Assembly: GCA_964399265.1 (NCBI GenBank)
Contig: CAYNQF010000002.1
Location: 3,444-67,443, forward strand
Direction of reading: 5' to 3'
Length of the DNA stretch: 64,000 bases
Source of the DNA: an uncultured bacterium
GTDB lineage: Bacteria > Joyebacterota > Joyebacteria > Joyebacterales > Joyebacteraceae
In this document: positions 8,029 through 25,458 of the stretch, in pieces
How positions within the stretch are numbered: the first letter of the stretch is position 1
Layout: every line of letters starts with the position of its first letter
Notes under the pieces: generated by a model
Seen by the model: only the letters and a program-made list of their open reading frames with translations
What the model was told of the DNA's origin: nothing
Database searches by the model: none
Translations under genes and position numbers: made by a program

Positions 8029-8055
8029 CACTCCGGATGGGTCCGGCGATTCTGC

Positions 8056-8084
8056 TTGACTTCATTGTGCCTTCTGACTATACT
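8056..8084 (+). promoter_or_regulatory. Near-consensus sigma70 promoter TTGACT-17-TATACT
   Basis: TTGACT 8056-8061, 17-nt spacer, TATACT 8079-8084; conserved in the duplicated module (23318-23346). Confidence 0.6.
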
Positions 8085-8091
8085 GTATGTC

Positions 8092-8170
8092 AGCAGAGGC
8101 GACCACGTTGGTATGGTGACATATCCGGAAGCTCTTAGGAGGGACCTGGCGCGCGAGCCGGTCCCTTTTT
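8092..8170 (+). ncRNA. Candidate ~79-nt small RNA or cspA leader-attenuator transcript (promoter to intrinsic terminator)
   Basis: Bounded by promoter 8056-8084 and terminator 8141-8170; whole unit conserved (about 85-90 % nt) in the second copy at 23354-23432. Confidence 0.4.
8141..8170 (+). terminator. Rho-independent terminator gggacc(t)ggc-gcgcga-gccggtccc + TTTTT
   Basis: 9-bp stem with one bulge followed by five T; loop differs between copies while the stem is conserved. Confidence 0.6.
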
Positions 8171-8356
8171 ACGTTTCAGAGGCGCCATGAGGCGCCCAAG
8201 GATATGCTCCATACCGGCGGTCGGTGATGGCGCCACCTGCAGGGGCGGACAGGCCCCGTCACGAAGAATGTCGGAACGTCGGGCACCCCGGCGCCGGCAA
8301 CACGGTCGCAGGCGAGGAAACGCTTTTCGCCGCGAGAGCAAGAGAGGTAGCAGATA

Positions 8357-8572
8357 GTGAGTACCAACGGAACCGTGAAGTGGTTCAACGACGGCAAGGG
8401 CTTCGGCTTCATCTCCTTGGAGGACGGGTCGAAGGACGTATTCGTTCACCATTCGGCGATTCAGGGCGGAGACGAGTTCAAGACGCTGAACGAGGGCGAT
8501 CGCGTGCAGTTCGATGTCGTGCAGGGCGAGAAGGGCCCGGCGGCCGAGAACGTCACGAAGATCGTGGAGTAG
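8357..8572 (+). CDS. cspA: Cold-shock protein, CspA family (71 aa, GTG start)
   Basis: '[13 protein letters not shown]' RNP1 and 'VFVHHSAI' RNP2-like motifs; AAGAGAGG RBS. Confidence 0.9.
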
Positions 8573-8608
8573 TCGGCGACCCCAGGATCGCAGACTGATA
8601 TTGCTGTA

Positions 8609-8652
8609 CGGGGCCGCCTTCTGACTCAATGAGGGCGGCCCCGCTGCTTCTC
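8609..8652 (+). terminator. Hairpin terminator after cspA (cggggccgcc-N15-ggcggccccg + ctgcttctc)
   Basis: 10-bp GC stem then pyrimidine/U-rich tract; counterpart at 23870-23910 in copy 2. Confidence 0.5.
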
Positions 8653-8689
8653 GCACCATCTGGTACGCTGCCACAATCGAGGATCAGCA

Positions 8690-10201
8690 TTGAACGCGCT
8701 TCTAGTCTATCCCAAGAACCCCGAGACCTTCTGGAGCCTCACGCATGCCCTCAGGCTCATAAACCGGAAGGCCGCGTCTCCTCCTCTCGGCCTTCTGACA
8801 GTGGCGGCGATGCTTCCCTCTGACTGGGACCTTCGTCTCGTCGATCTGAACGTTCGCCCCATGACCCGTGAGGACCTTGCGTGGGCCGACTGTGCCCTTC
8901 TGAGCGGGATGATCGTCCAGAGGGAGTCGGCGCTCGAGATCGCCGCTCGCTGTAAGGCCGCGGGCCTGATGGTGGTTGCAGGCGGACCGCTCTTCGCGTC
9001 GGAGAACGAGAGAGCGAAGTTCGGGGACGTCGATCACTTCGTGCTTAACGAGGCGGAGCTCACACTGCCTCCGTTTCTTGAGGATCTTGAACGCGGCCGG
9101 GCGCGCCGCGTGTACCAGACCAGCGAGTTCGCTGACCTGACCACCACGCCGGTCCCGCGATGGGACTTGGTGGACCCGCACGAGTACGCCTCCCGAGGAG
9201 TCCAGTTCTCGCGCGGCTGTCCCAACAACTGCGAGTTCTGTGAAGTAACACAGCTATTCGGTCATCGCTGGCGGACGAAGGCGGTCTCTCAGGTCGTCGC
9301 TGAACTCAACGCCCTGCACGGGCTCGGCTGGCGCGGTGTCGTTCCTTTCGTGGACGACAACTTCAACGCGAAGGGCGAGTACGTCCGCCGCGAGCTTCTC
9401 CCGGCCCTGATCGAATGGAGAGCGGGCAAGCGAGGAATGGGCTTCAGCGCTCAGGTCACCATGCAGCTCGCAGACGACGCCGAGCTCATGGAACTCATGG
9501 TACGGGCCGGGTTCGACACCGTCTTCATCGGGATCGAGACGATGGACGACGCGAATCTGGCGGAGTGTCACAAGAGGCACAATCGCCACAGGGACCTCCT
9601 GGCCGACGTGAAGCGCATCCAGAGGGCCGGACTCCAGGTGCAGGCGGGGTTCATCGTGGGGTTCGACAACGACACGCCGTCGGTCTTCGCGCGGATGACC
9701 GAGTTCATACAGAAGAGCGGCATCGCCACCGCGATGGTCGGTATGCTGCAGGCGCCGGTCGGCACGGCCCTGTACAAGCGTCTCGATCGCGAGGGTCGGA
9801 TTCGAGTCGATCTGTCCGGCGACAACTCCGACGGCACGACGAACATCGTTCCGAGGATGGGTCTCGAGTCGCTGCAGACGGGATACGGCGGCCTACTGCG
9901 CGACCTCTATGCGCCAAGCAATTACTACCGCCGCGTGCGAACCTTCCTCAGGGAGTACCGCCCGCAGAGGACGAACCTCCGGTTCTCAGCGCCGCACGCC
10001 CTGGCCGTCTTCCGCTCTTTCTACCACTTGAGCCTCGCAGGCCGGGAGCGGTGGGAGTATCCGGGCCTGCTGTTCTGGACGCTCTTCAGACGTCCCAGGT
10101 CCTTGCCAGTAGCCGTAGTGCTCGCCATCTACGGGTACCACTACCGCAAGTGCTACGAGACATTCTTCAGCGCGGTCATCCCTGATTCTGCTCGCGCTTG
10201 A
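8690..10201 (+). CDS. B12-binding domain radical SAM protein with C-terminal DUF4070-like region (class B rSAM methyltransferase-like), TTG start
   Basis: N-terminal B12-binding-like 'PPLGLLTVAAMLP'; CX3CX2C 'CPNNCEFC'; 503 aa; about 85 % identical paralogue at 23947-25458. Confidence 0.85.
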   Translation: MNALLVYPKNPETFWSLTHALRLINRKAASPPLGLLTVAAMLPSDWDLRLVDLNVRPMTREDLAWADCALLSGMIVQRESALEIAARCKAAGLMVVAGGPLFASENERAKFGDVDHFVLNEAELTLPPFLEDLERGRARRVYQTSEFADLTTTPVPRWDLVDPHEYASRGVQFSRGCPNNCEFCEVTQLFGHRWRTKAVSQVVAELNALHGLGWRGVVPFVDDNFNAKGEYVRRELLPALIEWRAGKRGMGFSAQVTMQLADDAELMELMVRAGFDTVFIGIETMDDANLAECHKRHNRHRDLLADVKRIQRAGLQVQAGFIVGFDNDTPSVFARMTEFIQKSGIATAMVGMLQAPVGTALYKRLDREGRIRVDLSGDNSDGTTNIVPRMGLESLQTGYGGLLRDLYAPSNYYRRVRTFLREYRPQRTNLRFSAPHALAVFRSFYHLSLAGRERWEYPGLLFWTLFRRPRSLPVAVVLAIYGYHYRKCYETFFSAVIPDSARA

Positions 10202-10287
10202 GGCTGCCGCCCGCGTCATCTGTGCCGTCCAGCGCGACGTGCCGAGTCCGAAACCAGACCTCGGTCTGGGTTGCCCCTTGCCTGCGT

Positions 10288-10348
10288 CGAATACTGCTGC
10301 ATTCGGGGAGCCGGCATACGAAGGCCGGTCCGAGAGGACCGGGCCTTC
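10288..10348 (+). repeat. Intergenic repeat copy B (GGGGAGCCGGCATACGAAGGCCGGTCC-gaga-GGACCGGGCCTTC), downstream of the rSAM gene
   Basis: Same GGAGCC-GCATACGAAGG-hairpin core as copy A; likely doubles as a terminator. Confidence 0.45.
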
Positions 10349-10845
10349 CACTTGCGCGCGAGATAGAGGAAATCGGGAGCGTCGGAGGGCGCTCCCCTTA
10401 GTGCATTCCAGGGGGTGGGCCGCCCTGTGGAGTCGTCCTGCGGTTGCAGCGGGGGTCCACAGTGATGCTCGACAGCGAACGGTCAGGTGTGGGCGACAAA
10501 CCGCAGCTGCCCATGTGATGATAATGGCCATTGAGGAACCTCCGCCTTACGAAGTAGATGCACGATCTGCTCAAGCGTGTAGCGGCTCCGTCCCATCAAG
10601 AACCCCCTCTCTGACCAGCCCGAGTCTACCTCCCGACTTGGACCAGTTCTAGGGGGTCAGGTCAGGCTCGGTGCGTTCTAGAAGCTTGACGTGTTCACGA
10701 GCGTGTGGGAGGCAGAGGCGCTGGCCACAAGACGGCGACGCAAGTACAATGAGATGAGAACTCACGAGCCTTGGGGCACCTCCCGGCATCACATGCTTCT
10801 ACCCGACCGGGGCTTGCGCCGCTCTTAACCGCCGCTGATGTGTGA

Positions 10846-13104
<2,259 letters not shown>

Positions 13105-13186
13105 CATGGACGTCCAGGCCCGGGCGTGGCGCCGGGGAGCGATCAAGGCGCTGCGCAGTTGGCCCGTCGCCTGACGGAACCGTCGA

Positions 13187-13265
13187 GGGTTCCCGGTCAC
13201 AAGTTCGAATACCGTCCACCGCGGGGAGCCATAGAAGCGGGGCCTGGCGATGACGTCAGGTCCCG
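13187..13265 (+). repeat. Intergenic repeat copy C (GGTTCccGGTCACaaGTTCGAATACCGTCCACCGCGGGGAGCCATAGAAGCGGGGCCTG...CAGGTCCC), downstream of katG
   Basis: Shares GTTCGAAT-CCGTCCACC-GGAGCC-CATA-hairpin order with copies A and D. Confidence 0.45.
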
Positions 13266-13337
13266 TGTTCAGTTGGACGTCCGTCACGTCCCTGGGGGCG
13301 GCCAACGCTCGGATATCGTCCATTGGCGGGCGCTTTG

Positions 13338-13366
13338 TTGACATAGTGTTCAGTCTGTGGTATCGT
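13338..13366 (+). promoter_or_regulatory. sigma70 promoter TTGACA-17-TATCGT (TGg extended -10)
   Basis: Perfect -35 hexamer at 13338-13343; about 150-nt structured leader containing palindrome GAGCGATCGCTC before the 13521 gene. Confidence 0.5.
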
Positions 13367-13520
13367 AGAGTGAAGGCAAGAACCCCGGGGCTGAGCGAGC
13401 GATCGCTGATCGCTCGGCCCCGGTTGCGCGCCGCGCAGGTCCCGCCTGCGGGGCACATGGCAGGTCTGCACCGGCCCAGTGGACTCGGTGGAGATCTCCC
13501 ACACGGAAGGAGACAGCCTG

Positions 13521-14039
13521 ATGAGCCTGCCTCGCAGTTCGTTGAGCCTCCTGCTTGTCATCTTCGTCGCGACCTCGGCCGCAGCCGACTACGTCATCGA
13601 AGAGAGCGTGGTGGCGTCCGGTGGAGGAGCGGGTGCCGGAGGCAGCTACTCGCTGCTGGGGACAGTCGGCCAGCCGGTGATCGGGACCGCGTTGTCCGCG
13701 ACGAACACGGCGGAGATCGGATTCTGGTACCAGCCCGGCTGGATACTGACCGGCATCACAGATCCAGACGGACCGCTCGCCTTCCGCATGAACCAGAACG
13801 CTCCCAATCCGTTCAACCCCGTGACCACACTGAGCTACTCCGTCGCCGCCAGGACTCACGTGACCATCTCTGTCTACAACGTGTCCGGCAGGCTCGTGAA
13901 GACGCTGGTCGACGAGAGCAAGGAGGCGGGGAGGTTTGAGACCGTACTGGACGCCCGCGGTCTGACGAGCGGGGTCTACTTCGCCCGCATGACCGCCGGT
14001 GACTTCGTTGAGACAACCAAGATGGTTCTGCTGAAGTAA
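13521..14039 (+). CDS. Small secreted protein (172 aa) consisting mainly of signal peptide plus FlgD-like C-terminal sorting domain
   Basis: Start at Met 'MSLPRSSLSLLLVIFVATSAAA'; C-terminal 'NAPNPFNPVTTLSY...VYNVSGRLVKTLVDE...GVYFARM...KMVLLK'. Confidence 0.55.
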   Translation: MSLPRSSLSLLLVIFVATSAAADYVIEESVVASGGGAGAGGSYSLLGTVGQPVIGTALSATNTAEIGFWYQPGWILTGITDPDGPLAFRMNQNAPNPFNPVTTLSYSVAARTHVTISVYNVSGRLVKTLVDESKEAGRFETVLDARGLTSGVYFARMTAGDFVETTKMVLLK

Positions 14040-14070
14040 CGTTGGGGCGGACGCCCCGGAGGGATCTCCG

Positions 14071-16593
14071 ATGCGCGCGATCTCTGCTGTCCTGTCTCTC
14101 CTGTTCATCCTGGCCGCCTGCACCGCCGAGGCCCAGATCCCCTCGACGATAAGCTACCAGGGCGTGTTGAACGACGACACCGGGACACCCGTCCCGGATG
14201 GTGATTACGACATGACATTCAGGATCTACAACGTGGCCACAGGCGGAAGCAACCTGTGGCATGAGGCCCAGACCGTGCCGGTGGCGGGTGGCATATTCAA
14301 CGCGCAGCTCGGCGCCGCGACGCCGCTGGATGACTTGCTGGAGTTCGACGAGCCCTACTACCTGAGCGTGGAGATTGGCCACAACGGGGAGATGACTCCC
14401 CGGAACCCGCTGACCACGACGCCCTACGCGTTCCGCGCGGCCGTTGCTGAGTCGCTGGACGGCGTCATTCCCCCCGACACCGACTGGGTTGAGTCGGGCG
14501 GTAACGTCTACCGGCTGACCGGCAACGTTGGTATCGGCACGAGCGATCCGTCGAAGCAGCTTGACGTCGTCGGCGATGCCGCGATCCTGGGCAACCTGAA
14601 GGTGATAGGCGACGTGGACATGCAGTCGGTGGAGATGAACCCTGGCGCTTCCGACGGATACGTTCTCACGTCCGACGCGAGCGGCAACGGCACGTGGCAG
14701 CCGGTTGCCGGTGTGGCGGTGCCGGGGAGCGACACCCAGGTGCTCTACAACGACGGCGGCAGCCTGGGCGCTGCCGGTCTGTACTACGACGATGTCAACG
14801 GGCGGCTCGGCGTAGGAGTGGCCGCGCCGATTCGGACGCTTGACATCGGAACGGGGGACCTCATCGCCGGCGAGATCTCCGCATTGAGCAGCGTGGGGAC
14901 GGGCACGCTCGAGGACGACGGCTCAGGAGAGCTCGACATCAACTCCTGGCAGATCAACCTGAACGGTCGCGCGGTCATCGCCGGGCAGCCAAGCTACGAT
15001 CCGGATCTCGACGTTACGGGCGTGACTGAGACCGACGGGTTCAGGCTCACGACTTCGCCTTCGGCGGGATTTGTGCTGACCTCCGACGCGAGCGGCAACG
15101 GCACGTGGCAGGCGCCGTCGGAGGTCACGGTGCCGGGCAGCGACGCCCAGATGCTCTACAACGACGGGGGAGACTTCGGTGCTGCGGGCGTCTACTACGA
15201 TGACGTCAACGGCAGGCTAGGTGTCGGTGTGGCGTCGCCCACAAGGACTCTCGATGTGGGGCAGAGCGGGGACATTCATTGCGGCGGCCTGCTCGCGGAT
15301 GGAGGCGTGTTCACGACCTCCCTGGCGCCAGCGGCGACAGCTGACCTCGACGTCACCCACGGGAGAACGGAGTTCTCGGGACGGGTCGGCATTAAGACCC
15401 TTCCTGGAACGGGCGTTGATCTCGACGTCATGGGCCTGACGCGGACCCAGACCTTCAGACTGACGACCTCGCCGACAGCGGGCCACGTTCTCACCTCGGA
15501 CGCCACCGGCAACGGCACGTGGCAGGCGCCGCCTGAGGTGACGGTGCCCGGCAGCGACACGCAGATGCTCTACAACGACGGGGGTGACTTCGGAGCCGCC
15601 GGCGTCTACTACGATGACGCCAACGGCAGGCTGGGCATCGGTGTAGCGTCCCCCGCCTACTCTCTCGACACCGGCGCAGGCGGCTGGATGCGCTCCGGCG
15701 ATGTGCGCGCGGAAACTGCAGTTCATACGAACACGCTTATGTCGACGGGGAGCAACCCCGACCTGACCGTAATGCACAACAGGACGCTGGTGACGGGCCA
15801 GCTCGGGGTGGGCGGTGCAACGCCGGGGGTCGGCACCTCCCTCGAGGTCGACGGGCTCACGCAGACCGACGAGTTCAGACTGACGACCTCGCCGTCCGAC
15901 GGCTACGTCCTGACCTCGGACGCAAGCGGCAACGGCACATGGCAGGCAGTTCCCGTGGAGCTGACGACGGACTCGGTCACTGCGGTGCACATCGCGGCGA
16001 ACGCCGTCGGCACCGACGAGCTCGCGACGGACTCAGTCGGCTCGAGCAATATACAGCACAACGCCGTCACCGCGGACGAGATCCTGGACGGCGCGGTGGG
16101 CGCTGCTGAGATCGGGACCGACGCCGTCGGCACCGATGAGATCATGTGGAACGGCGTCGACTCGGATGAGATCGCGACGGACGCAGTGGGCGAGGACGAG
16201 ATCGCCTACGGCGCCGTTGGCCGTGACGAGCTGGCCGAGACGTTCAAGTCCGCGTACGTGAACGTGAACACCTACAACTCAGGCGAGTACATCTGGCACC
16301 AGTCGTACTGGACGAAGGGAACGCCGCTCATCCAGACAACAGGCACGTCACGCCAGATCCAGATCATCGACACTGCCAGCTCCGGCACGGTCAACGTGCT
16401 GGTCACGGTCAACGGCTCGGTGCTGGTCAGTACGACGGCGCCGTACACGCTGAACATGACATCGACGGGCTCCGCGTACGACATCTACGTCTACCCGGCC
16501 AACTCCCTGGTCAAGTGGTTCGTGCACTTCGAGGGGACCATCCTGTCGAACTATCGCGTGGTCGGAATTGTCCAGGCAGGAGGAGGCCACTAG
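14071..16593 (+). CDS. Lipoprotein with four ~110-aa tail-fibre-like repeats ('LTSDASGNGTWQ...PGSDxQxLYNDGGxxGAAGxYYDDxNGRLGxGVAxP')
   Basis: Signal/lipobox 'LFILAAC'; N-terminal 'ISYQGVLND' module; internal repeats obvious by eye; no FlgD tail; GGAGGG RBS. Confidence 0.6.
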   Translation: MRAISAVLSLLFILAACTAEAQIPSTISYQGVLNDDTGTPVPDGDYDMTFRIYNVATGGSNLWHEAQTVPVAGGIFNAQLGAATPLDDLLEFDEPYYLSVEIGHNGEMTPRNPLTTTPYAFRAAVAESLDGVIPPDTDWVESGGNVYRLTGNVGIGTSDPSKQLDVVGDAAILGNLKVIGDVDMQSVEMNPGASDGYVLTSDASGNGTWQPVAGVAVPGSDTQVLYNDGGSLGAAGLYYDDVNGRLGVGVAAPIRTLDIGTGDLIAGEISALSSVGTGTLEDDGSGELDINSWQINLNGRAVIAGQPSYDPDLDVTGVTETDGFRLTTSPSAGFVLTSDASGNGTWQAPSEVTVPGSDAQMLYNDGGDFGAAGVYYDDVNGRLGVGVASPTRTLDVGQSGDIHCGGLLADGGVFTTSLAPAATADLDVTHGRTEFSGRVGIKTLPGTGVDLDVMGLTRTQTFRLTTSPTAGHVLTSDATGNGTWQAPPEVTVPGSDTQMLYNDGGDFGAAGVYYDDANGRLGIGVASPAYSLDTGAGGWMRSGDVRAETAVHTNTLMSTGSNPDLTVMHNRTLVTGQLGVGGATPGVGTSLEVDGLTQTDEFRLTTSPSDGYVLTSDASGNGTWQAVPVELTTDSVTAVHIAANAVGTDELATDSVGSSNIQHNAVTADEILDGAVGAAEIGTDAVGTDEIMWNGVDSDEIATDAVGEDEIAYGAVGRDELAETFKSAYVNVNTYNSGEYIWHQSYWTKGTPLIQTTGTSRQIQIIDTASSGTVNVLVTVNGSVLVSTTAPYTLNMTSTGSAYDIYVYPANSLVKWFVHFEGTILSNYRVVGIVQAGGGH

Positions 16594-16596
16594 CGT

Positions 16597-16671
16597 TCCG
16601 TCCTGTGGTTCGAATCCCGTCCACCACGAGGAGCCGGCATAGGAGGCCCGGTCCATGAGGACCGGGCCTCC
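16597..16671 (+). repeat. Intergenic repeat copy D (GTGGTTCGAATCCCGTCCACCACGAGGAGCCGGCATAGGAGGCCCGGTCC-atga-GGACCGGGCCTCC)
   Basis: Begins 4 nt after the TAG stop of the upstream gene; 13-bp perfect GC stem. Confidence 0.5.
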
Positions 16672-16773
16672 TCGCGGCTGCGCTCGATTGTGGCCGCAGG
16701 GCACAACGCGTATGCTGCGAGAACCCCCTCAGGGCGCTCCATCCGCAGGCTGTCCACCGCGGGACTCGCGGCG

Positions 16774-18882
16774 ATGCCGCTGCTTCTCATTGCCTTCTGT
16801 TCTCTTTCGGCAACCGGCACCGCGAACGAATACGTCGAGGACTTCACTTCCAGGACGTTCTGCGACACGCTCAACACGACTGCATTCTGGGATACCGCGA
16901 TGGGGAAGCTGCGGCTCCGGCCCTTCAGCGTGTCCATGGAGGGAGGATGTCTCACCTACGACAGCGCGCGGGATGTCGCGGTCGAGGGCGTCTACGTGCT
17001 CGACGTTGCCAATCCGAGCACCCCTGTTCTCGTGGACAGCTACGACACCTCCGGCTACGCGGTGGCCGCGGCTCCCGATGGAGAGCATGTTCTCGTTGCC
17101 GACCACGACTCAGGACTCGTCGCGCTGCGCGTCAGGGAGTCGACACGTCCGTTCCTCGTGTGTAGCGACGAAGGTTCGAACGAAGCCCACTGCATCACCT
17201 TGTCCGGCGACTACGCCTACGTGGCGAACGTGATCAATGGTCTTGTGGTAGTCGACATATCGGATCCCACGAACCCGACTCAGGTGGGAACGTGCGACCC
17301 GGCTCCCTACGTGATGGACGTGGACACAAGCGGGGACTTCGCCTACCTGGCATGTCGTGAGGACGGGCTGCACGTTGTGGACATCGAAGACCCTACGAAT
17401 CCCGTTGCGCTCGGTGGGGTCTCGGGCCTGGGGTGGGCTCAGACTGTGTCGGTGATCGGCGAGCTGGCCTACGTGGCGTGCGACACCTCTGGAATCAAGG
17501 TTGTGGACGTCAGCGATCCTGAGAACCCAGTGCTCCTGAGCGGCCACAACACACCGGGAGCCGGTGAGCACATCGCGGTCGAAGGAGACTACGCGTTCGT
17601 CGCGGACGGGGCTGCCGGCGTGCACGTCTTCGAAGTCTACCAGCGCCAGTTCGATGCCCGCGCGAACCTTGCCCAGTCCCTGCCTGTCGGAATCGCAGGA
17701 CTGGGCGTCTACGGAGCGCGATTGAACACGGTGCAGGCCGACTCGATACTGTGGGAGATGAGCGCTGATGGGGGAGGTCACTGGGAGGCCATTACCCCTG
17801 ATGGTGAGTGGGTCTACTTCCTGCGGCCTGGCGGCGACCTTCTCTGGAGATCGACCCACACGTATCTCGGCGGCCACGTCGATCCTTCCTGCACGAGCCT
17901 GACGATCGGCACGCTCTACGAGTGCCCCATTCTCACGGCTGTCTCGGACATCCCGGATGATCAAGGTCGGCAGGTCCGCTTGTCCTGGGCCAGGAGCGCG
18001 TACGACGTGACGGGGAGCATCGCGCCTATCCTCGAGTACTCCGTCTTCAGGAGGATCACGGAAACGCGTGAGCCACAGGTCGGCCTCGGGCAGGATGCTC
18101 GCTACCCTCCAGGCGACTGGGACTACGTTGTGAGCGTCCCGGCGTACCTGGAGGACGGCTATTCGGTCGTCGTACCGACGTTAACCGATTCAACGAGCGC
18201 GGGGGGGATGGGGTACTCCGTGTTCTTCGTGCGGGCTGCCACAGCCACCCCTGGTCTCTTCTTTGACGCACCTCCCGACAGCGGATACTCCGTCGACAAC
18301 CTTGCGCCATCGGTTCCGACCGGGCTCGGGGTCGACTATGGCGCGACCGAGAACGAGCTGGCGTGGGAGGAGTGCGAGGACGATGACTTCCAGTACTTCC
18401 GGATCTACAGGAGCACGGATCCCGAGTTCACTCCCGCTTCGGAGAACCTAGTGCACATGACGGTCGACACGGGGTGGGTCGATCCAGTCTCGGAGGGCTG
18501 GCAGTACTACTACAAGGTCAGTGCTGTCGATTTCTCCGGCAATGAGAGTGACGCGGCTTCGCCGGAGACGGTGACGGGCGTCGATGATTCCTCGATGCCG
18601 AGCCGATATGCCCTCTACCAGAACGTGCCCAACCCGCTGAACCCGACGACGACCATCAGCTACGACGTGCCGGCCAATGGCGGCCACGTATCGCTCGACA
18701 TTTTCGATGTGCGAGGTCGACTGGTACGGCGTTTGGTGGATGGCTACGTCGAAGGTGGACGAAGGACGGCGGTGTGGGACGGACGCGATGACGGCGGCGA
18801 CCGAGTGGCATCGGGCGTCTACTACTACCGACTGAGTGCGCCGGGGTACGAGAGAATGCTCAAGATGACGGTGCTGAAGTAA
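16774..18882 (+). CDS. Secreted LVIVD-repeat beta-propeller protein with FN3-like region and FlgD-like C-terminal sorting domain
   Basis: Repeated 'DxxxAYVAxxxxGLxVVDISDPxNP' LVIVD-type units; C-terminal 'NVPNPLNPTTTISYDVP...IFDVRGRLVRRLVDG...GVYYYRL...KMTVLK'. Confidence 0.65.
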   Translation: MPLLLIAFCSLSATGTANEYVEDFTSRTFCDTLNTTAFWDTAMGKLRLRPFSVSMEGGCLTYDSARDVAVEGVYVLDVANPSTPVLVDSYDTSGYAVAAAPDGEHVLVADHDSGLVALRVRESTRPFLVCSDEGSNEAHCITLSGDYAYVANVINGLVVVDISDPTNPTQVGTCDPAPYVMDVDTSGDFAYLACREDGLHVVDIEDPTNPVALGGVSGLGWAQTVSVIGELAYVACDTSGIKVVDVSDPENPVLLSGHNTPGAGEHIAVEGDYAFVADGAAGVHVFEVYQRQFDARANLAQSLPVGIAGLGVYGARLNTVQADSILWEMSADGGGHWEAITPDGEWVYFLRPGGDLLWRSTHTYLGGHVDPSCTSLTIGTLYECPILTAVSDIPDDQGRQVRLSWARSAYDVTGSIAPILEYSVFRRITETREPQVGLGQDARYPPGDWDYVVSVPAYLEDGYSVVVPTLTDSTSAGGMGYSVFFVRAATATPGLFFDAPPDSGYSVDNLAPSVPTGLGVDYGATENELAWEECEDDDFQYFRIYRSTDPEFTPASENLVHMTVDTGWVDPVSEGWQYYYKVSAVDFSGNESDAASPETVTGVDDSSMPSRYALYQNVPNPLNPTTTISYDVPANGGHVSLDIFDVRGRLVRRLVDGYVEGGRRTAVWDGRDDGGDRVASGVYYYRLSAPGYERMLKMTVLK

Positions 18883-19090
18883 TGCGGTCATGACCAGAGG
18901 TGAGGCGAGGTTCCCGATCCGAAAGGACCGGGCCTTCCGCGTGTTTGGCGCTCTAGTCGAACCTGGCGATTGAGAGACTTGGTGCAATCCCCGCTTGTCT
19001 CCGTGACCGCGGAGCCGCAGGCCGTCTCCAAGCAACGAAAACCCCCGCCGCTCGGAGAACGGCGGGGGTCTCATCTTCTACAGGATGCGT

Positions 19091-19732
19091 CTAGCGGTAC
19101 AGCGACTTCACCATTCCCCAGGTCGACGACTCGACCGGAGAGGCGCCGGCGCACTCGTAGGTGCCAAGCGGGAACGGAGTGGCGGCCGTCGCGTTCGTGG
19201 TCTCGTTGTCGAGCGCGTTAGTGCCGCTGTAGATCCAGTTCTCGAGAACGAACGTCGAGCCATCAGGACCGGTGCCGTTGACCCGGTAAACCCAACCGTC
19301 CAGGTAGTCCCAGGCCGTTCCCGTGCCGTCGACGTTGATGTCGCCGAACACGTCCACGACGCTGCCGTTCATGAACAGCTCTATGGCGTCGTCGCCGTTG
19401 ATGTTCGGGGCGTTGGCGTCGGTGTAGTCCGGGGCGAAGCCGAAGAACGCGGTGAATGCGTCCACGTCGTACGAAACATAGATGTACTGGCCCGCGACCG
19501 CGGAGTCGGCCGGGAAGGTGAACTCCTCGCCGTCCGTGCCGCCGCCGTTGTTGGCGGACCCGAGCCCGTAGATCGAGAGGTCGGCGATGTCGGCGCAGGC
19601 GACCACCTCGATCGCCTTCGGGATCCCGCCCGTGAGCGGACCGTCGACCACGCCGGTTATGACGAGGTCGGAAGCGCCGGCGCCCGTGGCGGCCAGCGAG
19701 AGCACTACGGCTATCATGACCAACTGTCTCAC
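19091..19732 (-). CDS. Secreted lamin-tail-domain (LTD) protein ending in the novel C-terminal motif '...GASPVESSTWGMVKSLYR'
   Basis: GTG start with AGGAGG RBS; signal 'MRQLVMIAVVLSLAATGAGA'; LTD-like 'LVITGVVDGPLTGGIPKAIEVV'; C-terminal tail shared with two other proteins. Confidence 0.6.
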   Translation of the reverse strand: MRQLVMIAVVLSLAATGAGASDLVITGVVDGPLTGGIPKAIEVVACADIADLSIYGLGSANNGGGTDGEEFTFPADSAVAGQYIYVSYDVDAFTAFFGFAPDYTDANAPNINGDDAIELFMNGSVVDVFGDINVDGTGTAWDYLDGWVYRVNGTGPDGSTFVLENWIYSGTNALDNETTNATAATPFPLGTYECAGASPVESSTWGMVKSLYR

Positions 19733-19777
19733 AGGATCCTCCTATGTGAGAGGTAGTAGAACCTACGCACTTGACAT

Positions 19778-19807
19778 ATTGTACCACATAAGTGACAGGA
19801 CACGCAA
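19778..19807 (-). promoter_or_regulatory. Candidate sigma70 promoter (TTGCGT-18-TGgTACAAT, minus strand) for the LTD gene
   Basis: Reverse complement gives an extended -10 TGGTACAAT about 45 nt upstream of the GTG start. Confidence 0.4.
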
Positions 19808-20007
19808 GAGCTGGGATGGTGCGAGACCTGTTCAGAAGGCCCCAGTGGCCGGGCCTTCCAGGTGATGGCGCGTGCAAGGGGGGAGGCGAGGCTCGTGACG
19901 ACTGACATAGCGAGGAGCACCGCGGTCGACACGATTGGCCCGGGCCCATCGCCAGGTCCGGACCTATCGCAAGGCCCAGACCTATCGCTCGCCGCAGGCC
20001 TATCGCC

Positions 20008-20745
20008 TCATTGCCCCAGCACTTCTTCCAGGAAGAGTGTGAACCGCTCCCAGGACTTGCGGTCCGCATCCGGTCTGTAGCGACTCGTTCCAAACACCGT
20101 GAAGGCGTGTGGTGCTTCCCCGTAGGTGATCATCTCGTACGGAAGGCCTGCCGCCTCGAGTTCAGCGGAGAGGCGCGCGAAGTCCTCCATGCTGACGCTC
20201 TGGTCGGCGCCGCCGTGCAGCACCAGAAACTCACCCTTCGCCTGAGAATAGTCCTGACCCTCGGGCGTGCGCAACACGCCGTGGAACGTGACGTACCCCC
20301 TGAGGTCGGCTCCAGACCTTGCCAGCTCGAGGACCGCCGCGCCGCCGAAGCAGTAGCCGACGGCAACGGTCCTCGTCGCGTCTGCGCCCTGCCCGCGTGC
20401 CACATCCAGGGACGCGGCGAGACGCGAGCGCAGCAGTCTCCGGTCCTGGTAGAATTCCCCGGTCAGCCGCCTGCTCTCATCGGCCGAGTTCGGACGCACG
20501 CCCTTCCCGAAGAGATCCGCCGCGAACACCGCGTACCCCAGCTCGGCGAGCATATCGGCGCGGGTCATCTCGTAGTCGTCGAGCCCGCTCCAGTCGTGAA
20601 CGAGAAACACCAGAGGGGCCACTGTAGGAGGGGCGACGTAGTACCCCTCGAACGTCTTCCCGTCGGCCTCGTATGTCACTGGCATGCCATCGCGCCGCGC
20701 AGACCGGATGAGTCCGAGAGGCGTCGCCGGGAGAAGAGACATCAT
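20008..20745 (-). CDS. Dienelactone hydrolase family protein
   Basis: 'AVGYCFGG' nucleophile elbow, alpha/beta-hydrolase layout, about 245 aa; ATG overlaps upstream stop (ATGA) at 20742-20745. Confidence 0.8.
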   Translation of the reverse strand: MMSLLPATPLGLIRSARRDGMPVTYEADGKTFEGYYVAPPTVAPLVFLVHDWSGLDDYEMTRADMLAELGYAVFAADLFGKGVRPNSADESRRLTGEFYQDRRLLRSRLAASLDVARGQGADATRTVAVGYCFGGAAVLELARSGADLRGYVTFHGVLRTPEGQDYSQAKGEFLVLHGGADQSVSMEDFARLSAELEAAGLPYEMITYGEAPHAFTVFGTSRYRPDADRKSWERFTLFLEEVLGQ

Positions 20746-23141
20746 CGCGAACCTCCGCGCTTCTTCGGCGCGGGCCTTGCAGGGCTCGGCGCAGGCCTTG
20801 CGGGCTTCGGCGCGGGGGTGCTCCGTGGCTTCGCCTTCTTCTCCAGAGCTTTTCCGCGACTTCTCGCCTTGTGCGCCTTGTTCAACTCCTCCTGCGTACC
20901 CTTCGCCGGGCCGGCCTGCTTCTTCGGCGGAACACGCTTGCTCTTCTCCACCTTCTGCCATTTGCCGCCCTGCTCCTTGTAGACCTTGCCGTCGGGCGCC
21001 GCGTATATGTTGTTCTCCTTGGTCGCCTTTCTGGGCTTCTTCATCTCCAGCGGGGCCTTGGGCGCTCTCCTGGGCTCGTGCTTCGTTGGTCCGACGATCG
21101 TGACGTTGCCCGCCGGTTTCTTGGGCTTCGCCGGGACTCGACCGGTTCCCTCTCTGGGGATGGGTCTCACGGGAGTGCCGGGCACACGCTCTATGGCGCG
21201 CGGCGTGCGCTGTTCCACCTTGCCCCCCTTGGAGGCGAGGTGTTCTCCGCCCGACAGCACTATCCCCTTCGGGTGCTTCCTGAAGAGGTTCCTGTTGTCG
21301 GTACCCCTCACCACGCCGGGATGCTGCGCGGGATGGTACCCGGCATACTTGCTGTCCCAGTAACCGTCGTGGTCACCATGGTGGTAGCCGCCCCCGTGGC
21401 CGTGATGATGGCCGTGGTGGTAGCCGTGGCGGTAGCCGTAGACGTACCCGCCAGGTCCCCACCAGCCTGTGTACCAGGGGCGCCCGTACCAGAGGTCGAG
21501 CCAGCCCAGGCTGACGCCGAAGTAGAGCCCCCAGCCTGTGTAGGGCCGCCACTGCGCACCGTAGCCCCACGTCGAGAACCTCGGGTAGTAGTGGTGTCTG
21601 TACCAGGGGCGGTAGTGGTAGCCGGTGCCGTAAACCACGCAGCCGCGGTAGACGTACGAGCCCAGATAGCCCGGCGTGTAGCCCACGTAGATGATGTCCG
21701 GCGTCACGTTGTAGATGTAGACGTACCGGACGTTGTAGTAGGGGCAGGTGGGTGGCAGGGTCTGCACCTGCGCAGGCACCCGCGTCGCAACGAGCCACGG
21801 GCCATTGGCGTAATCCGACACGAACCAGACGGCGTTGTCGCAGCAGTAGTACTCGTTGTCGACGAGCAGCACCGCCTTGTCCGCATTGGCGGCGTACGCG
21901 ACGTCGCCGGAGCAGAGCACGAACTCGGGGTTGCCGTCGTAAGTCACGGTCACCGCGGTCGTGTTGCGCTCAACCTCGGCGGTCTGAGGGATCAGGTTCT
22001 CGGCCACCGCGTCGGCCGCTTCGTCCGTCCCGGCTATGCTGGCGCGCACGTCCGCCATCTCGGAGTCGGCCGGTATCCCGTAGAAGTCGGCCGGCAGGAG
22101 GTCGGGCGCCACGAACGTCCAGTCGTTCCCGGACAGTGAACCCGACATATACCACCGTCCGGACAGCAGGACGTAGTAATGCTGCGTCGGGGTGTGCATG
22201 ATGATGTCGCTCTCGGAGTTCTGAACATAGAGCAGGTCCGTCCCCTCTATGGGGGCGAGCTGCGGTTCTCCGTCGGTCTCGATCACCTCCGCGGGGACGG
22301 CGCTCACCACCACTCTCGGTGTCGGGACGTCGACCAGAGAGAGAGCGGGATCGGCAGTCTGCGGATCGGAGGACAGAGTCTCTTCCCGCTTCTTCTCCTG
22401 CGCCTCGACGTCCGCGGCGACGGCCGACACCTTAGGCGGGAGCGATGATGTCACCCGCCAATCCCCGAGAATGTCTCCGCTCGTGTACCAGTGCCCGCCT
22501 CCGTACAGGAAGTAGCGGTCGGTGTCCGGATCCAGCAAGATGTAGAAGGGAGTGTTGACGACGTATTCGAGGCCCGAATTTTCGAGGTCGTTCAGGATGG
22601 GGTCACCGTCGATCGTGACCAGCACCGTGGGCTCGGAGGCGTAGATGATCTTGGGCGGGGAGTTGTCCAGGTCTGACACTCCGCCGTACGACTCCTCTAG
22701 CGGCGCGAGCCCGGCGATCAGGCTGTCCATCGACATGACCATCTCCCACTTCGGGAGTTCTTCCTCGACGTAGTCGGCCAGGCGGCGGCCCTCCTCGGTG
22801 GTGGAGTCGGGAAAGCGCGCGTCCGTCACGGTCATCGACTCGAGAGAGGCCGTTCTCGCGTCAGTGTCGGTGGCGATCCGCGCGTCGAACCACACGGCTC
22901 CGAAGACGGGAGCCGACTCGCCATTCGGGATGACTGACACGGCCGCACGGGCCTTGAGCATGTCGCCCGAGTACTCCTCGATCTGCGGCTGGTAGATCAC
23001 GATCTGGCCCTGCTCTCCGTCAAGCTGCCTCGGCCAGGGCAGGACGCTTGATTCCTGCGACGCTGCAGGCAGGGTCGCCAGCAGCAGGGGGACGACCAGT
23101 GTCGCAGTGCCCAACCACTTAAATGGCGATAATGACTTCAT
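20742..23141 (-). CDS. Secreted hypothetical protein (about 800 aa) with Tyr/Trp/Gly/His-rich low-complexity region and highly basic Lys/Pro-rich C-terminal tail
   Basis: Signal 'MKSLSPFKWLGTATLVVPLLLATLPAASQ'; 'YGYRHGYHHGHHHGHGGGYHHGDHDGYWD'; C-terminal 130 aa is KPKKPxxPAPK-rich. Confidence 0.6.
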   Translation of the reverse strand: MKSLSPFKWLGTATLVVPLLLATLPAASQESSVLPWPRQLDGEQGQIVIYQPQIEEYSGDMLKARAAVSVIPNGESAPVFGAVWFDARIATDTDARTASLESMTVTDARFPDSTTEEGRRLADYVEEELPKWEMVMSMDSLIAGLAPLEESYGGVSDLDNSPPKIIYASEPTVLVTIDGDPILNDLENSGLEYVVNTPFYILLDPDTDRYFLYGGGHWYTSGDILGDWRVTSSLPPKVSAVAADVEAQEKKREETLSSDPQTADPALSLVDVPTPRVVVSAVPAEVIETDGEPQLAPIEGTDLLYVQNSESDIIMHTPTQHYYVLLSGRWYMSGSLSGNDWTFVAPDLLPADFYGIPADSEMADVRASIAGTDEAADAVAENLIPQTAEVERNTTAVTVTYDGNPEFVLCSGDVAYAANADKAVLLVDNEYYCCDNAVWFVSDYANGPWLVATRVPAQVQTLPPTCPYYNVRYVYIYNVTPDIIYVGYTPGYLGSYVYRGCVVYGTGYHYRPWYRHHYYPRFSTWGYGAQWRPYTGWGLYFGVSLGWLDLWYGRPWYTGWWGPGGYVYGYRHGYHHGHHHGHGGGYHHGDHDGYWDSKYAGYHPAQHPGVVRGTDNRNLFRKHPKGIVLSGGEHLASKGGKVEQRTPRAIERVPGTPVRPIPREGTGRVPAKPKKPAGNVTIVGPTKHEPRRAPKAPLEMKKPRKATKENNIYAAPDGKVYKEQGGKWQKVEKSKRVPPKKQAGPAKGTQEELNKAHKARSRGKALEKKAKPRSTPAPKPARPAPSPARPAPKKRGGSR

Positions 23142-23317
23142 AATGGTCCTCCTGTCGGGAATCCAGAGGCGCGCCCCCTGGTGAGCCCGACACATAGGAT
23201 GCAGGACGGGGCCCGGCGTGACTGCACTTGCGGTACGTGCGTGCTATCTCTTTGGTCGGCGAGCGGCGGTGAAGGATTCACTGGGCGCTCGCCGTGCGCA
23301 TCGCCCTACGATTTCGT

Positions 23318-23346
23318 TTGACTTAAATGGGTGGGTGGACTATCTT
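23318..23346 (+). promoter_or_regulatory. sigma70 promoter TTGACT-17-TATCTT (copy 2 of the module)
   Basis: Paralogous to 8056-8084. Confidence 0.55.
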
Positions 23347-23353
23347 GAAGCCA

Positions 23354-23432
23354 AGCAGAGGCGACCACGTCGGTATGGTGACATATCCGAAGACTCTCAA
23401 GAGGGACCTGGCGCAGAGGCCGGTCCCTTTTT
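23354..23432 (+). ncRNA. Candidate small RNA / csp leader-attenuator, copy 2
   Basis: Conserved with 8092-8170; ends in gggacc(t)ggc-gcagag-gccggtccc + TTTTT (23403-23432). Confidence 0.4.
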
Positions 23433-23617
23433 GCGTTTCAGGGGCGCCATGAGGCGCCCCAGGATATGCCCCAGGCCGGCGGTCGGTGACGGCGTCGCCT
23501 GCAGGGGAGGACAGGCCCCTTAACTGAGGATGTCGGAAAGCCTGGTTGAGAGGCGCCGACGACACGATCGCGGGCGAGGCACGATTCTCGCCGCGAGAAC
23601 AAGAGAGGCAGCATACA

Positions 23618-23830
23618 GTGAGTACCACCGGAACCGTGAAGTGGTTCAACGACGCCAAGGGCTTTGGCTTCATCTCCTTGGAGGATGGGTCGAAGGACGT
23701 ATTCGTTCACCATTCGGCGATCCAGGGCGACGGCTTCAAGACGCTGAACGAAGGTGATCGCGTGCAGTTCGATGTCGTGCAGGGCGAGAAGGGCCCGGCG
23801 GCCGAGAACGTCACGAAGATCGTCGAGTAG
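23618..23830 (+). CDS. cspA: Cold-shock protein, CspA family, paralogue 2 (70 aa, GTG start)
   Basis: 96 % identical to the 8357 copy apart from a one-codon indel (GGDEF versus GDGF). Confidence 0.9.
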
Positions 23831-23869
23831 TCGGAGACTCAGGATCGCAGACCGATGCATCAGTTCACC

Positions 23870-23910
23870 GGGCCGCCCTCTGGCGCAATGAGGGCGGCCT
23901 CTTCGTTTCT
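23870..23910 (+). terminator. Hairpin terminator after cspA copy 2 (gggccgccct-N11-agggcggcct + cttcgtttct)
   Basis: Conserved position and stem relative to copy 1. Confidence 0.5.
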
Positions 23911-23946
23911 CGCCTGTTCGGAGAGCACACCATCAAGGAGCCCCCA

Positions 23947-25458
23947 TTGAACGCGCTCCTGATCTACCCGAAGAACCCCGAGACCTTCTGGAGCCTTACG
24001 CACGCCCTCCGGCTCATCAACCGGAAGGCCGCTTCACCTCCACTCGGGCTCCTGACGGTCGCCGCCCTTCTACCTTCCGACTGGAATCTGCGCCTCGTCG
24101 ACCTGAACGTTGGCGTCTTGACCAACGACGACCTGGTCTGGGCCGACTGCGCTCTAGTGAGCGGCATGATCGTGCAGAAGAACTCGGCACTGGAGGTCGT
24201 CACTCGCTGCAAGTCGGCGGGCCTGACCGTGATCGCCGGCGGGCCGCTCTTTGCGTCGGAGGAAGAGAGGGCCGCGTTCACCGGTGTGGATCACTTCGTG
24301 CTGAACGAGGCAGAGCTGACCCTCCCGCCGTTCCTCCAGGACCTCGAGCGGGGCACGACACGCCGCACGTACCGCACAGACCAGTACGCCGACATGACCA
24401 CCACGCCCGTACCTCGCTGGGATCTCCTGGATCCGCGCGAGTACGCCTCACGTGGCGTCCAGTTCTCACGTGGCTGTCCGAACAACTGCGAGTTCTGCGA
24501 GGTCACGCAGCTGTTTGGGCATCGCTGGAGGACGAAGGCGGTCTCTCAGGTCATTGCCGAACTGGACGTACTCGACGGACTCGGGTGGCACGGTGTCGTC
24601 CCATTCGTCGACGACAACTTCAACGCGAAGGGGCGGTACCTGCGCGGCGAGCTTCTTCCCGCGCTGATCGAGTGGAGGCGAGGCAAGCGCGGCATGAACT
24701 TCAGCGCTCAGGTCACGATGGAACTCGCCGACGACCCCGAGCTGATGCAGATGATGGTGAGCGCGGGTTTCGACACTGTCTTCATCGGGATCGAGACGAT
24801 GGACGAGGCGAACCTCGCCGAGTGTCACAAGCGGCAGAATCGCAACCGCGACCTTCTGGCCGACATCAAGCGCATCCAGAGGGCGGGCCTCCAGGTCCAG
24901 GCGGGCTTCATCGTCGGTTTCGACAACGACACGCCCTCGGTCTTCGAGCGGATGGGCGAGTTCATACAGAAGAGCGGTATCGTTACCGCGATGGTCGGAA
25001 TGCTCCAGGCTCCGATCGGCACGGCTCTCTACAAGAGGCTCGACCGCGAGGGGCGGATTCGCACCGGTCTGTCGGGTGACAACTCCGACGGCACGACGAA
25101 CATCGTTCCGAGCATGGGCTTGGGTCCGCTCCAGGAAGGGCACAAGAGGCTCCTGAGAGAACTCTACTCGCCGGCGAACTACTACCGTCGAGTGAAGACC
25201 TTCCTCCGCGAGTACCGCCCGCCCAGGGCGAACACTCACATCTCCCGCTCACACGTCCTGGCGGCCGTCAGGTCGTTCTACTACCTGAGCCTCGCGGGTC
25301 GTGAGCACTGGCAGTTCCCCGGCCTTCTCATCTGGACCCTGTTCCGGCGCCCCAGGGCTCTTCCGGTCGCCGTCGTTCTCGCCATCTACGGCTATCACTA
25401 CCGCAAGAGCTACGAGCCTCTCTTCAGTTCGGTCACCTCCGTCACCGCTCGTGCCTGA
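23947..25458 (+). CDS. B12-binding radical SAM / DUF4070 protein, paralogue 2 (503 aa, TTG start)
   Basis: 'CPNNCEFC'; same length and about 85 % identical to the 8690 copy. Confidence 0.85.
   Translation: MNALLIYPKNPETFWSLTHALRLINRKAASPPLGLLTVAALLPSDWNLRLVDLNVGVLTNDDLVWADCALVSGMIVQKNSALEVVTRCKSAGLTVIAGGPLFASEEERAAFTGVDHFVLNEAELTLPPFLQDLERGTTRRTYRTDQYADMTTTPVPRWDLLDPREYASRGVQFSRGCPNNCEFCEVTQLFGHRWRTKAVSQVIAELDVLDGLGWHGVVPFVDDNFNAKGRYLRGELLPALIEWRRGKRGMNFSAQVTMELADDPELMQMMVSAGFDTVFIGIETMDEANLAECHKRQNRNRDLLADIKRIQRAGLQVQAGFIVGFDNDTPSVFERMGEFIQKSGIVTAMVGMLQAPIGTALYKRLDREGRIRTGLSGDNSDGTTNIVPSMGLGPLQEGHKRLLRELYSPANYYRRVKTFLREYRPPRANTHISRSHVLAAVRSFYYLSLAGREHWQFPGLLIWTLFRRPRALPVAVVLAIYGYHYRKSYEPLFSSVTSVTARA

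Follow-up and report, generated by a model that had tools for sequence, protein, structure and literature searches.

The DNA analyzed here, referred to below as the window, is a stretch of 64,000 nucleotides (nt) from contig CAYNQF010000002.1 (positions 3,444 to 67,443, forward strand; GenBank assembly GCA_964399265.1) of an uncultured bacterium placed in the Joyebacterota. The closest named relatives are metagenome-assembled genomes (MAGs) of Candidatus Eisenbacteria. The window contains two copies of a cassette in which a gene for a cold-shock protein (csp) is followed by a gene for a radical S-adenosylmethionine (SAM) enzyme with a C-terminal DUF4070 domain. In each copy the order of elements is the same, i.e., a sigma-70-type promoter, a structured leader of ~265 nt, csp, a GC-rich hairpin and the radical-SAM gene, which starts with TTG (Table 1). 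The copies are direct and collinear, and each spans ~2.16 kb (copy A, ~8047-10209; copy B, ~23309-25466), as found by repeat finding and pairwise alignment within the window. Homology begins ~10 nt 5' of the -35 box (at 8047 and 23309, respectively) and ends ~8 nt past the stop codon of the radical-SAM gene; the sequences that flank the two copies are unrelated (35-39% identity). Collinearity through coding and noncoding parts between unrelated flanks identifies the arrangement as a segmental duplication, and the two methods agree with the initial annotation in this respect. For comparison, the window was analyzed together with 187 related loci (L001-L187).

At the nucleotide level, copies A and B are 58% identical in the promoter spacer, 86% and 81% identical in the 5' and 3' parts of the leader, 94% identical in csp, 64% identical in the intergenic region and 79% identical in the radical-SAM gene. 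The radical-SAM genes differ by 0.89 synonymous (dS) and 0.12 nonsynonymous (dN) substitutions per site, and the csp genes by a dS of 0.18. Both copies are under purifying selection. The enzyme of copy A is up to 92% identical to orthologs in other assemblies, compared with 82% (410/503 residues) to that of copy B, and this relationship, together with the dS of 0.89, indicates that the duplication is ancient and not recent. The proposal that the pair was kept as a unit through the duplication thus holds, but for an old event. The two Csp proteins are 94% identical (67/71); this value and that for the enzymes are slightly below the ~96% and ~85% given initially. Copy B of the enzyme is identical to database protein P0009. 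A catalase-peroxidase-type gene is found just past cassette A (10888-13104), and its ortholog is found just 5' of the csp-radical-SAM pair in L084 (830-3046); what remains of synteny here may be of use in tracing the course of the duplication.

Both Csp proteins match the cold-shock domain family PF00313 (CSD) with 101.8 and 110.4 bits at a cut-off of 27, and the RNP1 (KGFGFI) and RNP2 (VFVHH) motifs are visible in their translations, consistent with the CspA family. Matches of the copy A protein to CspE/CspA-type NCBIfam models are under the equivalog cut-offs. The protein encoded downstream of csp belongs to the radical-SAM superfamily (PF04055, 57.4 and 52.8 bits at a cut-off of 29.5) and contains DUF4070 (PF13282, 105.1 and 100.9 bits at a cut-off of 22); the motif C177-x3-C181-x2-C184 is invariant in 23 homologs. 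Translation of both genes from TTG, as originally annotated, is supported by the orthologs, in which TTG, ATG or GTG occupies the same alignment column, with a Shine-Dalgarno (SD) sequence, GAGGA/AAGGAG, 6-8 nt upstream. In an AlphaFold2 (AF2) model with a predicted local distance difference test (pLDDT) score of 83, the N domain is Rossmann-like, the core is a TIM barrel, and the C-terminal part, DUF4070 (residues 392-493), is a bundle of five helices. The DUF4070 domain is consistently basic (median net charge +12 in 116 homologs), and the other domains are slightly acidic. This charge fits binding to a polyanion, i.e., RNA or an acidic membrane. No hydrophobic segment of the protein exceeds a transmembrane-like threshold.

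The label "B12-radical-SAM (DUF4070)" used in the initial annotation is correct for the radical-SAM and DUF4070 domains, which are present in both copies. The B12 part derives from the domain architecture; the match to PF02310 (B12-binding) is marginal in copy A (34.9 bits at a cut-off of 32.1), below the cut-off in copy B, and at 27.4 bits in an Acidobacteriota homolog. The best solved structure in a Foldseek search is that of AprD4, and the cobalamin enzymes MgmA, TsrM, CysS, OxsB and TokK, as well as MiaB, rank after it. Because AprD4 is not known to use cobalamin and the cobalamin enzymes come next, the use of cobalamin by this enzyme is plausible but not assured. None of the NCBIfam equivalog models is reached by the radical-SAM protein: the best match is PhpK (81.6 bits at a cut-off of 600), and the models for HpnR, HpnJ, BchE, MgmA/QCMT, the ladderane radical-SAM enzyme, AprD4 and slr0320 give at most 65 bits at cut-offs of 251-775. 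The family is large and highly conserved, with more than 8000 matches, 55-60% identity between phyla and more than 592 loci in GTDB representative genomes. Membership in an anti-phage defense system was considered and rejected, as PADLOC gave generic weak matches only (PDC-M51A at 21-29 bits and CSD_V).

Upstream of each csp gene we find the promoter-like site reported in the initial annotation, TTGACT-17-TATACT in copy A and TTGACT-17-TATCTT in copy B, using a scan limited to sigma-70 consensus sites. The scan yields 2 (A) and 1 (B) sites per 3 kb, compared with 0.5 and 0.3 in shuffled sequences, and TTGAC as well as the T, A and T positions of the -10 box are invariant across 13 orthologous leaders. 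A CGATT motif is located just 5' of the -35 box (8047-8055 and 23309-23317); almost every orthologous locus retains this motif, which could serve as an UP element or as a binding site for a regulator.

The two leaders become homologous exactly at the expected transcript start (8092 in A, 23354 in B), and a terminator-like hairpin with a run of five U ends the first 79 nt, which agrees with the ~79-nt RNA sharing one terminator stem that had been recognized in both copies. The hairpin has a 12-13-bp GC-rich stem and a 6-nt loop in both copies (-31.4 kcal/mol, z -1.9 in A; -31.8 kcal/mol, z -2.4 in B), and its shape, with a U run immediately after the GC-rich stem-loop as in an intrinsic terminator, is kept in 22 variants. 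The first 80 nt of 22 distinct copies comprise an invariant single-stranded start, an 8-bp hairpin, a linker and the GC-rich hairpin with its U run; the loop of the 5' hairpin is always of the GNRA type (GUGA, GCAA, GCGA or GUAA). Between copies A and B the leader is 81-86% identical, compared with 48% at synonymous sites of the radical-SAM gene, and it is 73-90% identical in other genomes; it is therefore under selection. The remainder of the leader folds into additional hairpins that show compensatory changes. As determined from RNAalifold and pair counts, 94% of the cells at leader base pairs are paired, and 10 pairs have changed on both sides, compared with 3.4 in shuffles.

Most sequences could form a long-range helix between the 5' core and positions 8201-8221. 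One leader variant (L178-187) has lost this helix by deletion and in another (L168-176) it is degenerate, with the core unchanged; it was therefore no longer regarded as the main conserved element, for which the local GNRA hairpin has stronger support from the sequence comparison. Because the helix is lost in a variant with an unchanged core, the core and the terminator hairpin appear to form the essential module. Within the leader, an upstream open reading frame (8187-8357) was rejected as a leader peptide, as it has an early stop in copy B and the indels of the orthologs are not multiples of three. No Rfam family matches the leader at gathering or E-value thresholds. It is a lineage-specific csp element, present also on csp genes without a radical-SAM gene, and the motif appears to be new.

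The csp and radical-SAM genes lie on the same strand, with a 117-nt gap in the window (95-240 nt in the Eisenbacteria) and a strong hairpin between them. The initial annotation described a conserved post-csp terminator. The hairpin is indeed conserved, its stem being kept by compensatory changes in 13 loci, but its U tract (GCUGCUUCUC) is poor, and in copy A it may be a leaky terminator or a stabilizer. The sigma-70 consensus scan shows no promoter-like site between csp and the radical-SAM gene in either window copy, and the spacer from the hairpin to the start of the radical-SAM gene is ~29-50 nt (~29 nt in L083); the whole gaps from csp to the radical-SAM gene in the loci compared for read-through measure 95-170 nt. 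One locus that has lost csp, L002, has a promoter-like site of its own. Because a separate promoter would not fit into the space available at the orthologous loci, the radical-SAM enzyme is most likely made from read-through transcripts.

Table 1. Features of the two cassettes in the window, and RNA-recognition-motif (RRM) genes adjacent to radical-SAM genes at related loci.
Feature	Position	Strand	Description
Promoter region, copy A	8047..8091	+	CGATT motif; -35 TTGACT 8056-8061; -10 TATACT 8079-8084; consensus scan
Leader 5' module, copy A	8092..8170	+	79 nt; AGCAGAGGCGACCAC single-stranded; GNRA hairpin 8108-8128; linker; terminator-like hairpin 8141-8165; U run 8166-8170
Leader 3' part, copy A	8171..8356	+	further conserved hairpins; 8201-8221 pairable with 5' core; SD AAGAGAGG ahead of GTG
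cspA-like gene, copy A	8357..8572	+	GTG start, 71 aa; Pfam CSD E 1.9e-29
Intercistronic GC-rich hairpin, copy A	8606..8647	+	-32.0 kcal/mol, z -5.4; weak U tract
Radical-SAM gene, copy A	8690..10201	+	TTG start, 503 aa; B12-binding-like N domain; CxxxCxxC (C177/C181/C184); DUF4070 C-terminal helical bundle
Promoter region, copy B	23309..23353	+	-35 TTGACT 23318-23323; -10 TATCTT 23341-23346; consensus scan and alignment
Leader 5' module, copy B	23354..23432	+	GNRA hairpin 23370-23390; terminator-like hairpin 23403-23427; U run 23428-23432
Leader 3' part, copy B	23433..23617	+	from alignments; 81% identity to copy A
cspA-like gene, copy B	23618..23830	+	GTG start, 70 aa; Pfam CSD E 3.9e-32
Intercistronic hairpin, copy B	23870..23900	+	-24.8 kcal/mol, z -2.9
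Radical-SAM gene, copy B	23947..25458	+	TTG start, 503 aa; Pfam Radical_SAM and DUF4070; B12-binding under cut-off
RRM_1 genes, related loci	L005 5644-5883; L021 2061-2300; L023 3605-3850; L059 3151-3387; L067 1410-1649	that of the radical-SAM gene	150-614 nt from the radical-SAM gene

Absence of the csp-radical-SAM adjacency from related genomes had been named initially as grounds for abandoning the idea of a functional link; the adjacency is in fact kept in most Eisenbacteria relatives in spite of different flanks. A csp gene adjoins the radical-SAM gene on the same strand at 13 of 16 distinct Eisenbacteria loci, and the genes that flank the pair differ between them. At 11 distinct loci, csp is found 95-240 nt 5' of the radical-SAM gene (window copies A and B, L001/L082, L081, L083, L084/L119, L087/L088, L089/L095, L091, L166 and the contig that encodes P0003), and at L162/L163 and L164 csp and its leader are located downstream. 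The metagenome contig L091 has the order csp-radical-SAM-csp, with csp genes at 1343-1549 and 3708-3914 and a leader before each. A csp gene is missing at L002, L003 and L004. The MAG GCA_964562405.1 harbors two radical-SAM copies, of which L166 has a csp gene and L002 has none; in view of this MAG and of L091, multiple copies seem common in the Eisenbacteria. In a neighbor-joining tree the csp-linked state is confined to a single Eisenbacteria subclade, in which L002 represents a loss. The distribution suggests that the enzyme follows csp and that csp does not follow the enzyme.

Across phyla, the linkage was tested with 80 species-level loci, where a gene on the same strand within 1.7 kb of the radical-SAM gene was counted as a neighbor and the outer 265 kb of flanking sequence served as a control. 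A csp neighbor is found at 8 of the 80 loci (L001, L027, L037, L042, L062, L065, L070 and L075) and none in the outer 265 kb, which corresponds to p = 0.0026, or p = 0.011 for six independent events, and to p < 2e-4 against an assumed 5-10 csp genes per genome. RNA-binding proteins of the RRM type are encoded next to the radical-SAM gene at five further loci (L005, L021, L023, L059 and L067), again with none in the outer flanks; for csp and RRM genes combined, p = 6e-5, or 6e-4 for ten independent events. The csp-radical-SAM pair recurs independently in Desulfobacterota, Chloroflexota and Brocadiaceae. At L023, genes for a DEAD-box helicase (2349-3446), the RRM protein and the radical-SAM enzyme are arranged in tandem. 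At two Chloroflexota loci, an RNase II-type exoribonuclease gene (RNB and S1 domains) is located directly 3' of the radical-SAM gene on the same strand (L026, 5724-7250; L041, 5764-7275).

A clade of homologs with 45% identity is found in Acidobacteriota from soil and peat metagenomes (L097-L116; Terracidiphilus and Ca. Sulfotelmatomonas). Here, the conserved gene order consists of a treble-clef zinc-finger protein gene and csp on the minus strand, a 75-amino-acid open reading frame (ORF) and the radical-SAM gene on the plus strand, and a convergent gene for a DEAD-box RNA helicase. Assignment of the 75-amino-acid ORF as RpoZ-like was rejected, as it has no support in Pfam. Because the csp pair is both kept and recurrent, and because RRM, DEAD-box and RNase II-type genes take the same neighboring position elsewhere, the gene-neighborhood data support a nonrandom association of this enzyme family with cold-shock-type RNA genes.

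Clustering of 635 flanking ORFs yielded no conserved neighbors of a pathway type beyond generic two-component regulators and lineage-specific synteny. In four Desulfobacterota loci (L008, L034, L064 and L069), genes for HflK and HflC (Band_7) end ~35 nt 5' of the radical-SAM gene on the same strand, and at L015 FtsH is encoded downstream of it. In five Anaerolineae loci (L033, L048, L055, L068 and L077, at ~1000-3900), genes for a HisKA_3 kinase with multiple transmembrane (TM) segments, a response regulator and a multi-TM protein are divergent and located just 5' of the radical-SAM gene, in an architecture reminiscent of the thermosensor DesK/DesR. Other occasional neighbors include genes for an EF-G paralog and a fatty-acid desaturase.

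As in the 5' untranslated region (UTR) of E. coli cspA (cold box/thermosensor; RF01766), a long structured RNA precedes a major csp gene, and the element near its 5' end, which is highly conserved, could plausibly mediate autoregulation. The leader differs from that UTR in sequence and structure, with no detectable homology (36.4 bits to RF01766 at a gathering threshold of 78, in a match that covers mostly csp coding sequence), and in its intrinsic terminator hairpin, which looks canonical and ends in a U run; we know of no such hairpin and U run in the E. coli cspA leader. The E. coli proteins CspA, CspE and CspC reportedly act as antiterminators at terminators in the metY-rpsO-pnp region, in work said to have been described by Bae et al. 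in 2000. The proposed switch-on in the cold of genes located past hairpins, with Csp melting the RNA, could apply to both hairpins of the cassette. In contrast to the E. coli case, the putative terminators here flank csp itself, and the downstream gene encodes a radical-SAM enzyme.

As regards the enzyme, the hopanoid C-2 methylase HpnP has the same three-domain Pfam architecture (radical SAM, DUF4070 and B12-binding, the last of which is marginal in the cassette enzyme), but the cassette proteins reach no HpnP or HpnR equivalog at the cut-off (HpnR, 39.8 vs 650 bits), no hopanoid genes are found nearby, and the neighbors are RNA-related. The radical-SAM 1,2-diol dehydratase AprD4 (PDB 6fd2) is similar in structure (Foldseek E 7.6e-20, TM 0.66/0.72; phmmer E 6e-9), with a Rossmann-like N domain followed by a TIM-barrel core; it differs in sequence (21-22% identity; 44 bits to the NCBIfam AprD4 model at a cut-off of 500) and belongs to an aminoglycoside biosynthetic cluster. 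The methylthiotransferases MiaB and RimO act on tRNA and ribosomal protein S12, respectively. Both are radical-SAM enzymes that likewise stand alone, are widely conserved and begin with a Rossmann-like domain (Foldseek E ~1e-13, weak NCBIfam matches), but at the C terminus the present enzyme has the basic helical bundle of DUF4070 instead of a TRAM domain. In cyanobacteria, the cold-induced RNA chaperones Rbp (RRM) and CrhR (DEAD-box helicase) stand in for Csp. Similarly, RRM or DEAD-box proteins take the position of csp at L023, L005, L021, L059 and L067; unlike here, literature searches gave no description of a radical-SAM partner for the cyanobacterial genes.

We favor, with moderate confidence, an interpretation in which the anciently duplicated cassette combines an attenuator-type csp leader with a radical-SAM gene that is expressed by read-through and belongs to a cold-shock or cold-acclimation regulon. 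According to this model, the strong sigma-70-type promoter would drive csp through the ~265-nt leader, the 79-nt module acting as an attenuator or a Csp-responsive analog of a "cold box" that sets the amount of transcription reaching csp. The radical-SAM enzyme would be translated from those transcripts that read through the post-csp hairpin, such that its expression would track that of csp at a lower level. Melting of the hairpins by Csp could possibly boost its synthesis further, by analogy with antitermination in E. coli. Placement of the enzyme in such a regulon is suggested because its relatives adjoin csp, RRM, DEAD-box helicase and RNase II-type genes in unrelated lineages, i.e., cold induction would be expected on the basis of genomic context. 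Because the neighbors lean toward RNA, an RNA or ribosome-associated substrate, modified for example by radical C-methylation, is slightly favored over a membrane lipid. A more far-reaching version appears unlikely to us, namely that the DUF4070 radical-SAM family as a whole is a widespread and so far unrecognized cold-shock component that acts on RNA or the ribosome through radical chemistry, most likely C-methylation, and that in the Eisenbacteria its synthesis is gated by Csp-dependent antitermination at two hairpins, in the leader and between the cistrons.

A number of observations weigh against the favored interpretation. The adjacency could be functionally meaningless, i.e., csp would be monocistronic and end at a terminator, the radical-SAM gene would have an unrecognized promoter, the pairing in the Eisenbacteria would be inherited synteny and that in other phyla chance. 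Eisenbacteria csp genes that are 85-93% identical and have the same leader indeed occur in other contexts without a radical-SAM gene. The reversed order in L162-L164 implies that read-through from csp is not the sole mode of expression, and in L070 a strong canonical terminator follows csp. Intrinsic terminators of high-GC bacteria often have imperfect U tracts, so that the intercistronic hairpin may terminate efficiently. Furthermore, 65 of the 80 species-level loci have no RNA-chaperone or RNA-metabolism neighbor, and the restriction of the promoter scan to sigma-70 consensus sites also speaks for this alternative. The independence of the six and ten events was judged from the neighbor-joining tree alone, and the genome-wide density of csp and RRM genes was assumed, not taken from per-genome counts. 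We nevertheless regard a meaningless adjacency as doubtful: ten phylogenetically separate same-strand adjacencies within 1.7 kb involve two unrelated families of RNA chaperones, with none in the outer flanks; in the Eisenbacteria the pair persists while the flanking genes differ; the spacers after the hairpin are too short for a promoter; and DEAD-box helicase and RNB neighbors are found in further clades.

The proposed role of the leader is weakened by the absence of the long-range helix from one variant and by the failure to find, by inspection or with RNAalifold, an alternative antiterminator pairing for the leader hairpin. The 79-nt module could also be a free-standing gene for a trans-acting small RNA, and not (or not only) a cis attenuator of csp. 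With its promoter, its two hairpins and the U run it forms a discrete unit; no other part of the leader is as strongly conserved, and the module is intact in the L178-187 variant in spite of the loss of ~42 nt downstream. Yet throughout the window and the 187 loci it is found only directly 5' of csp in the same orientation, and conservation and structure extend over the stretch from the module to csp, where no second promoter-like site is seen, which makes a small RNA gene rather improbable. Recent gene conversion as the source of the similarity in leader and csp between copies A and B, with a functionless leader, would account for the dS of 0.18 in csp beside 0.89 in the adjacent radical-SAM gene. 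The leader, however, is 73-90% identical across genomes, where conversion is impossible and where the radical-SAM proteins are 67-87% identical; its loop variation obeys the GNRA rule and its stems have compensatory changes. Gene conversion is therefore largely refuted and very improbable, and together with the dS of 0.89 the conservation between genomes excludes recent duplication or conversion as the cause of leader conservation.

Concerning the substrate, the enzyme could modify membrane lipids, and not RNA, for adaptation to cold where oxygen-dependent desaturases fail, for example by methylation or another change of acyl or alkyl chains. A lipid methylase, the hopanoid C-2 methylase HpnP, likewise carries DUF4070 at its C terminus (PMC10697835). 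The carriers are mostly anaerobes and peat Acidobacteriota, some loci adjoin genes for HflK/HflC, FtsH, a fatty-acid desaturase or the multi-TM HisKA_3 kinase, and the basic C-terminal helical domain suits acidic lipid head groups no less than RNA and could bind acidic membranes. On the other hand, the recurrent neighbors are RNA-binding or RNA-processing genes with no recurrent lipid-biosynthesis gene among them, the scores to HpnR and other lipid-enzyme equivalogs are far under the cut-offs, and the protein lacks a hydrophobic segment of a transmembrane type. A lipid substrate is thus possible, with a probability that we consider low but not negligible.

Several other features of the window are listed here for completeness. 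A 43-nt repeat occurs three times on the plus strand (7985-8024, 10307-10346 and 16630-16669), where GGAGCCrGCATAsGArG is followed by a hairpin, GGCCGGTCC-GAGA-GGACCGGCC; no copies are expected by chance and none are found in the 187 related loci. Two of these copies bracket cassette A, ~25 nt before and ~100 nt after it. An ORF of 840 codons (14071-16593) has internal tandem repeats of ~411-420 nt and a run of 30-nt periodic repeats (14593-16224), with no Pfam match. Repeats at 2636-2703, 13834-13900, 18767-18834, 36472-36647, 47360-47426 and 62651-62717 correspond to FlgD_ig/type IX secretion C-terminal sorting domains, which end many large secreted proteins, including an amidohydrolase and an LVIVD-repeat protein. 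A tRNA gene at 5315-5386 (+; Rfam 69.8 bits) has the anticodon loop CUGUUAA and is probably tRNA-Asn (GUU).

In line with the statement in the initial annotation that no Csp-coupled B12-radical-SAM enzyme is described, literature searches yielded no paper linking Csp with a B12 or DUF4070 radical-SAM enzyme, nor any on cold induction of such an enzyme. Searches of the literature on branched glycerol dialkyl glycerol tetraethers (brGDGT) and lipid methylases revealed no connection to the cassette. Taken singly, csp genes preceded by structured leaders are of a known kind, as are radical-SAM enzymes; the recurrent link of the enzyme family to cold-shock RNA genes appears to be new.

No function is assigned to the DUF4070 radical-SAM proteins, which number in the thousands and occur in Chloroflexota, Desulfobacterota, Planctomycetota, Verrucomicrobiota, Acidobacteriota, Eisenbacteria and further phyla. 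The adjacency to cold-shock-type RNA genes is the sole recurrent neighbor theme found and provides a first testable hypothesis for the family, i.e., cold-induced expression and a substrate that is RNA or the membrane. Cultivable carriers are indicated among Terracidiphilus-type Acidobacteriota and Desulfobacterales. The new lineage-specific csp leader RNA with its built-in terminator is a candidate for Csp-dependent attenuation outside Proteobacteria and Firmicutes. If the enzyme acts on RNA, it would be the first with a class-B architecture known to do so; if it modifies lipids instead, it would bear on how anaerobes without oxygen-dependent desaturases adjust their membranes to cold.

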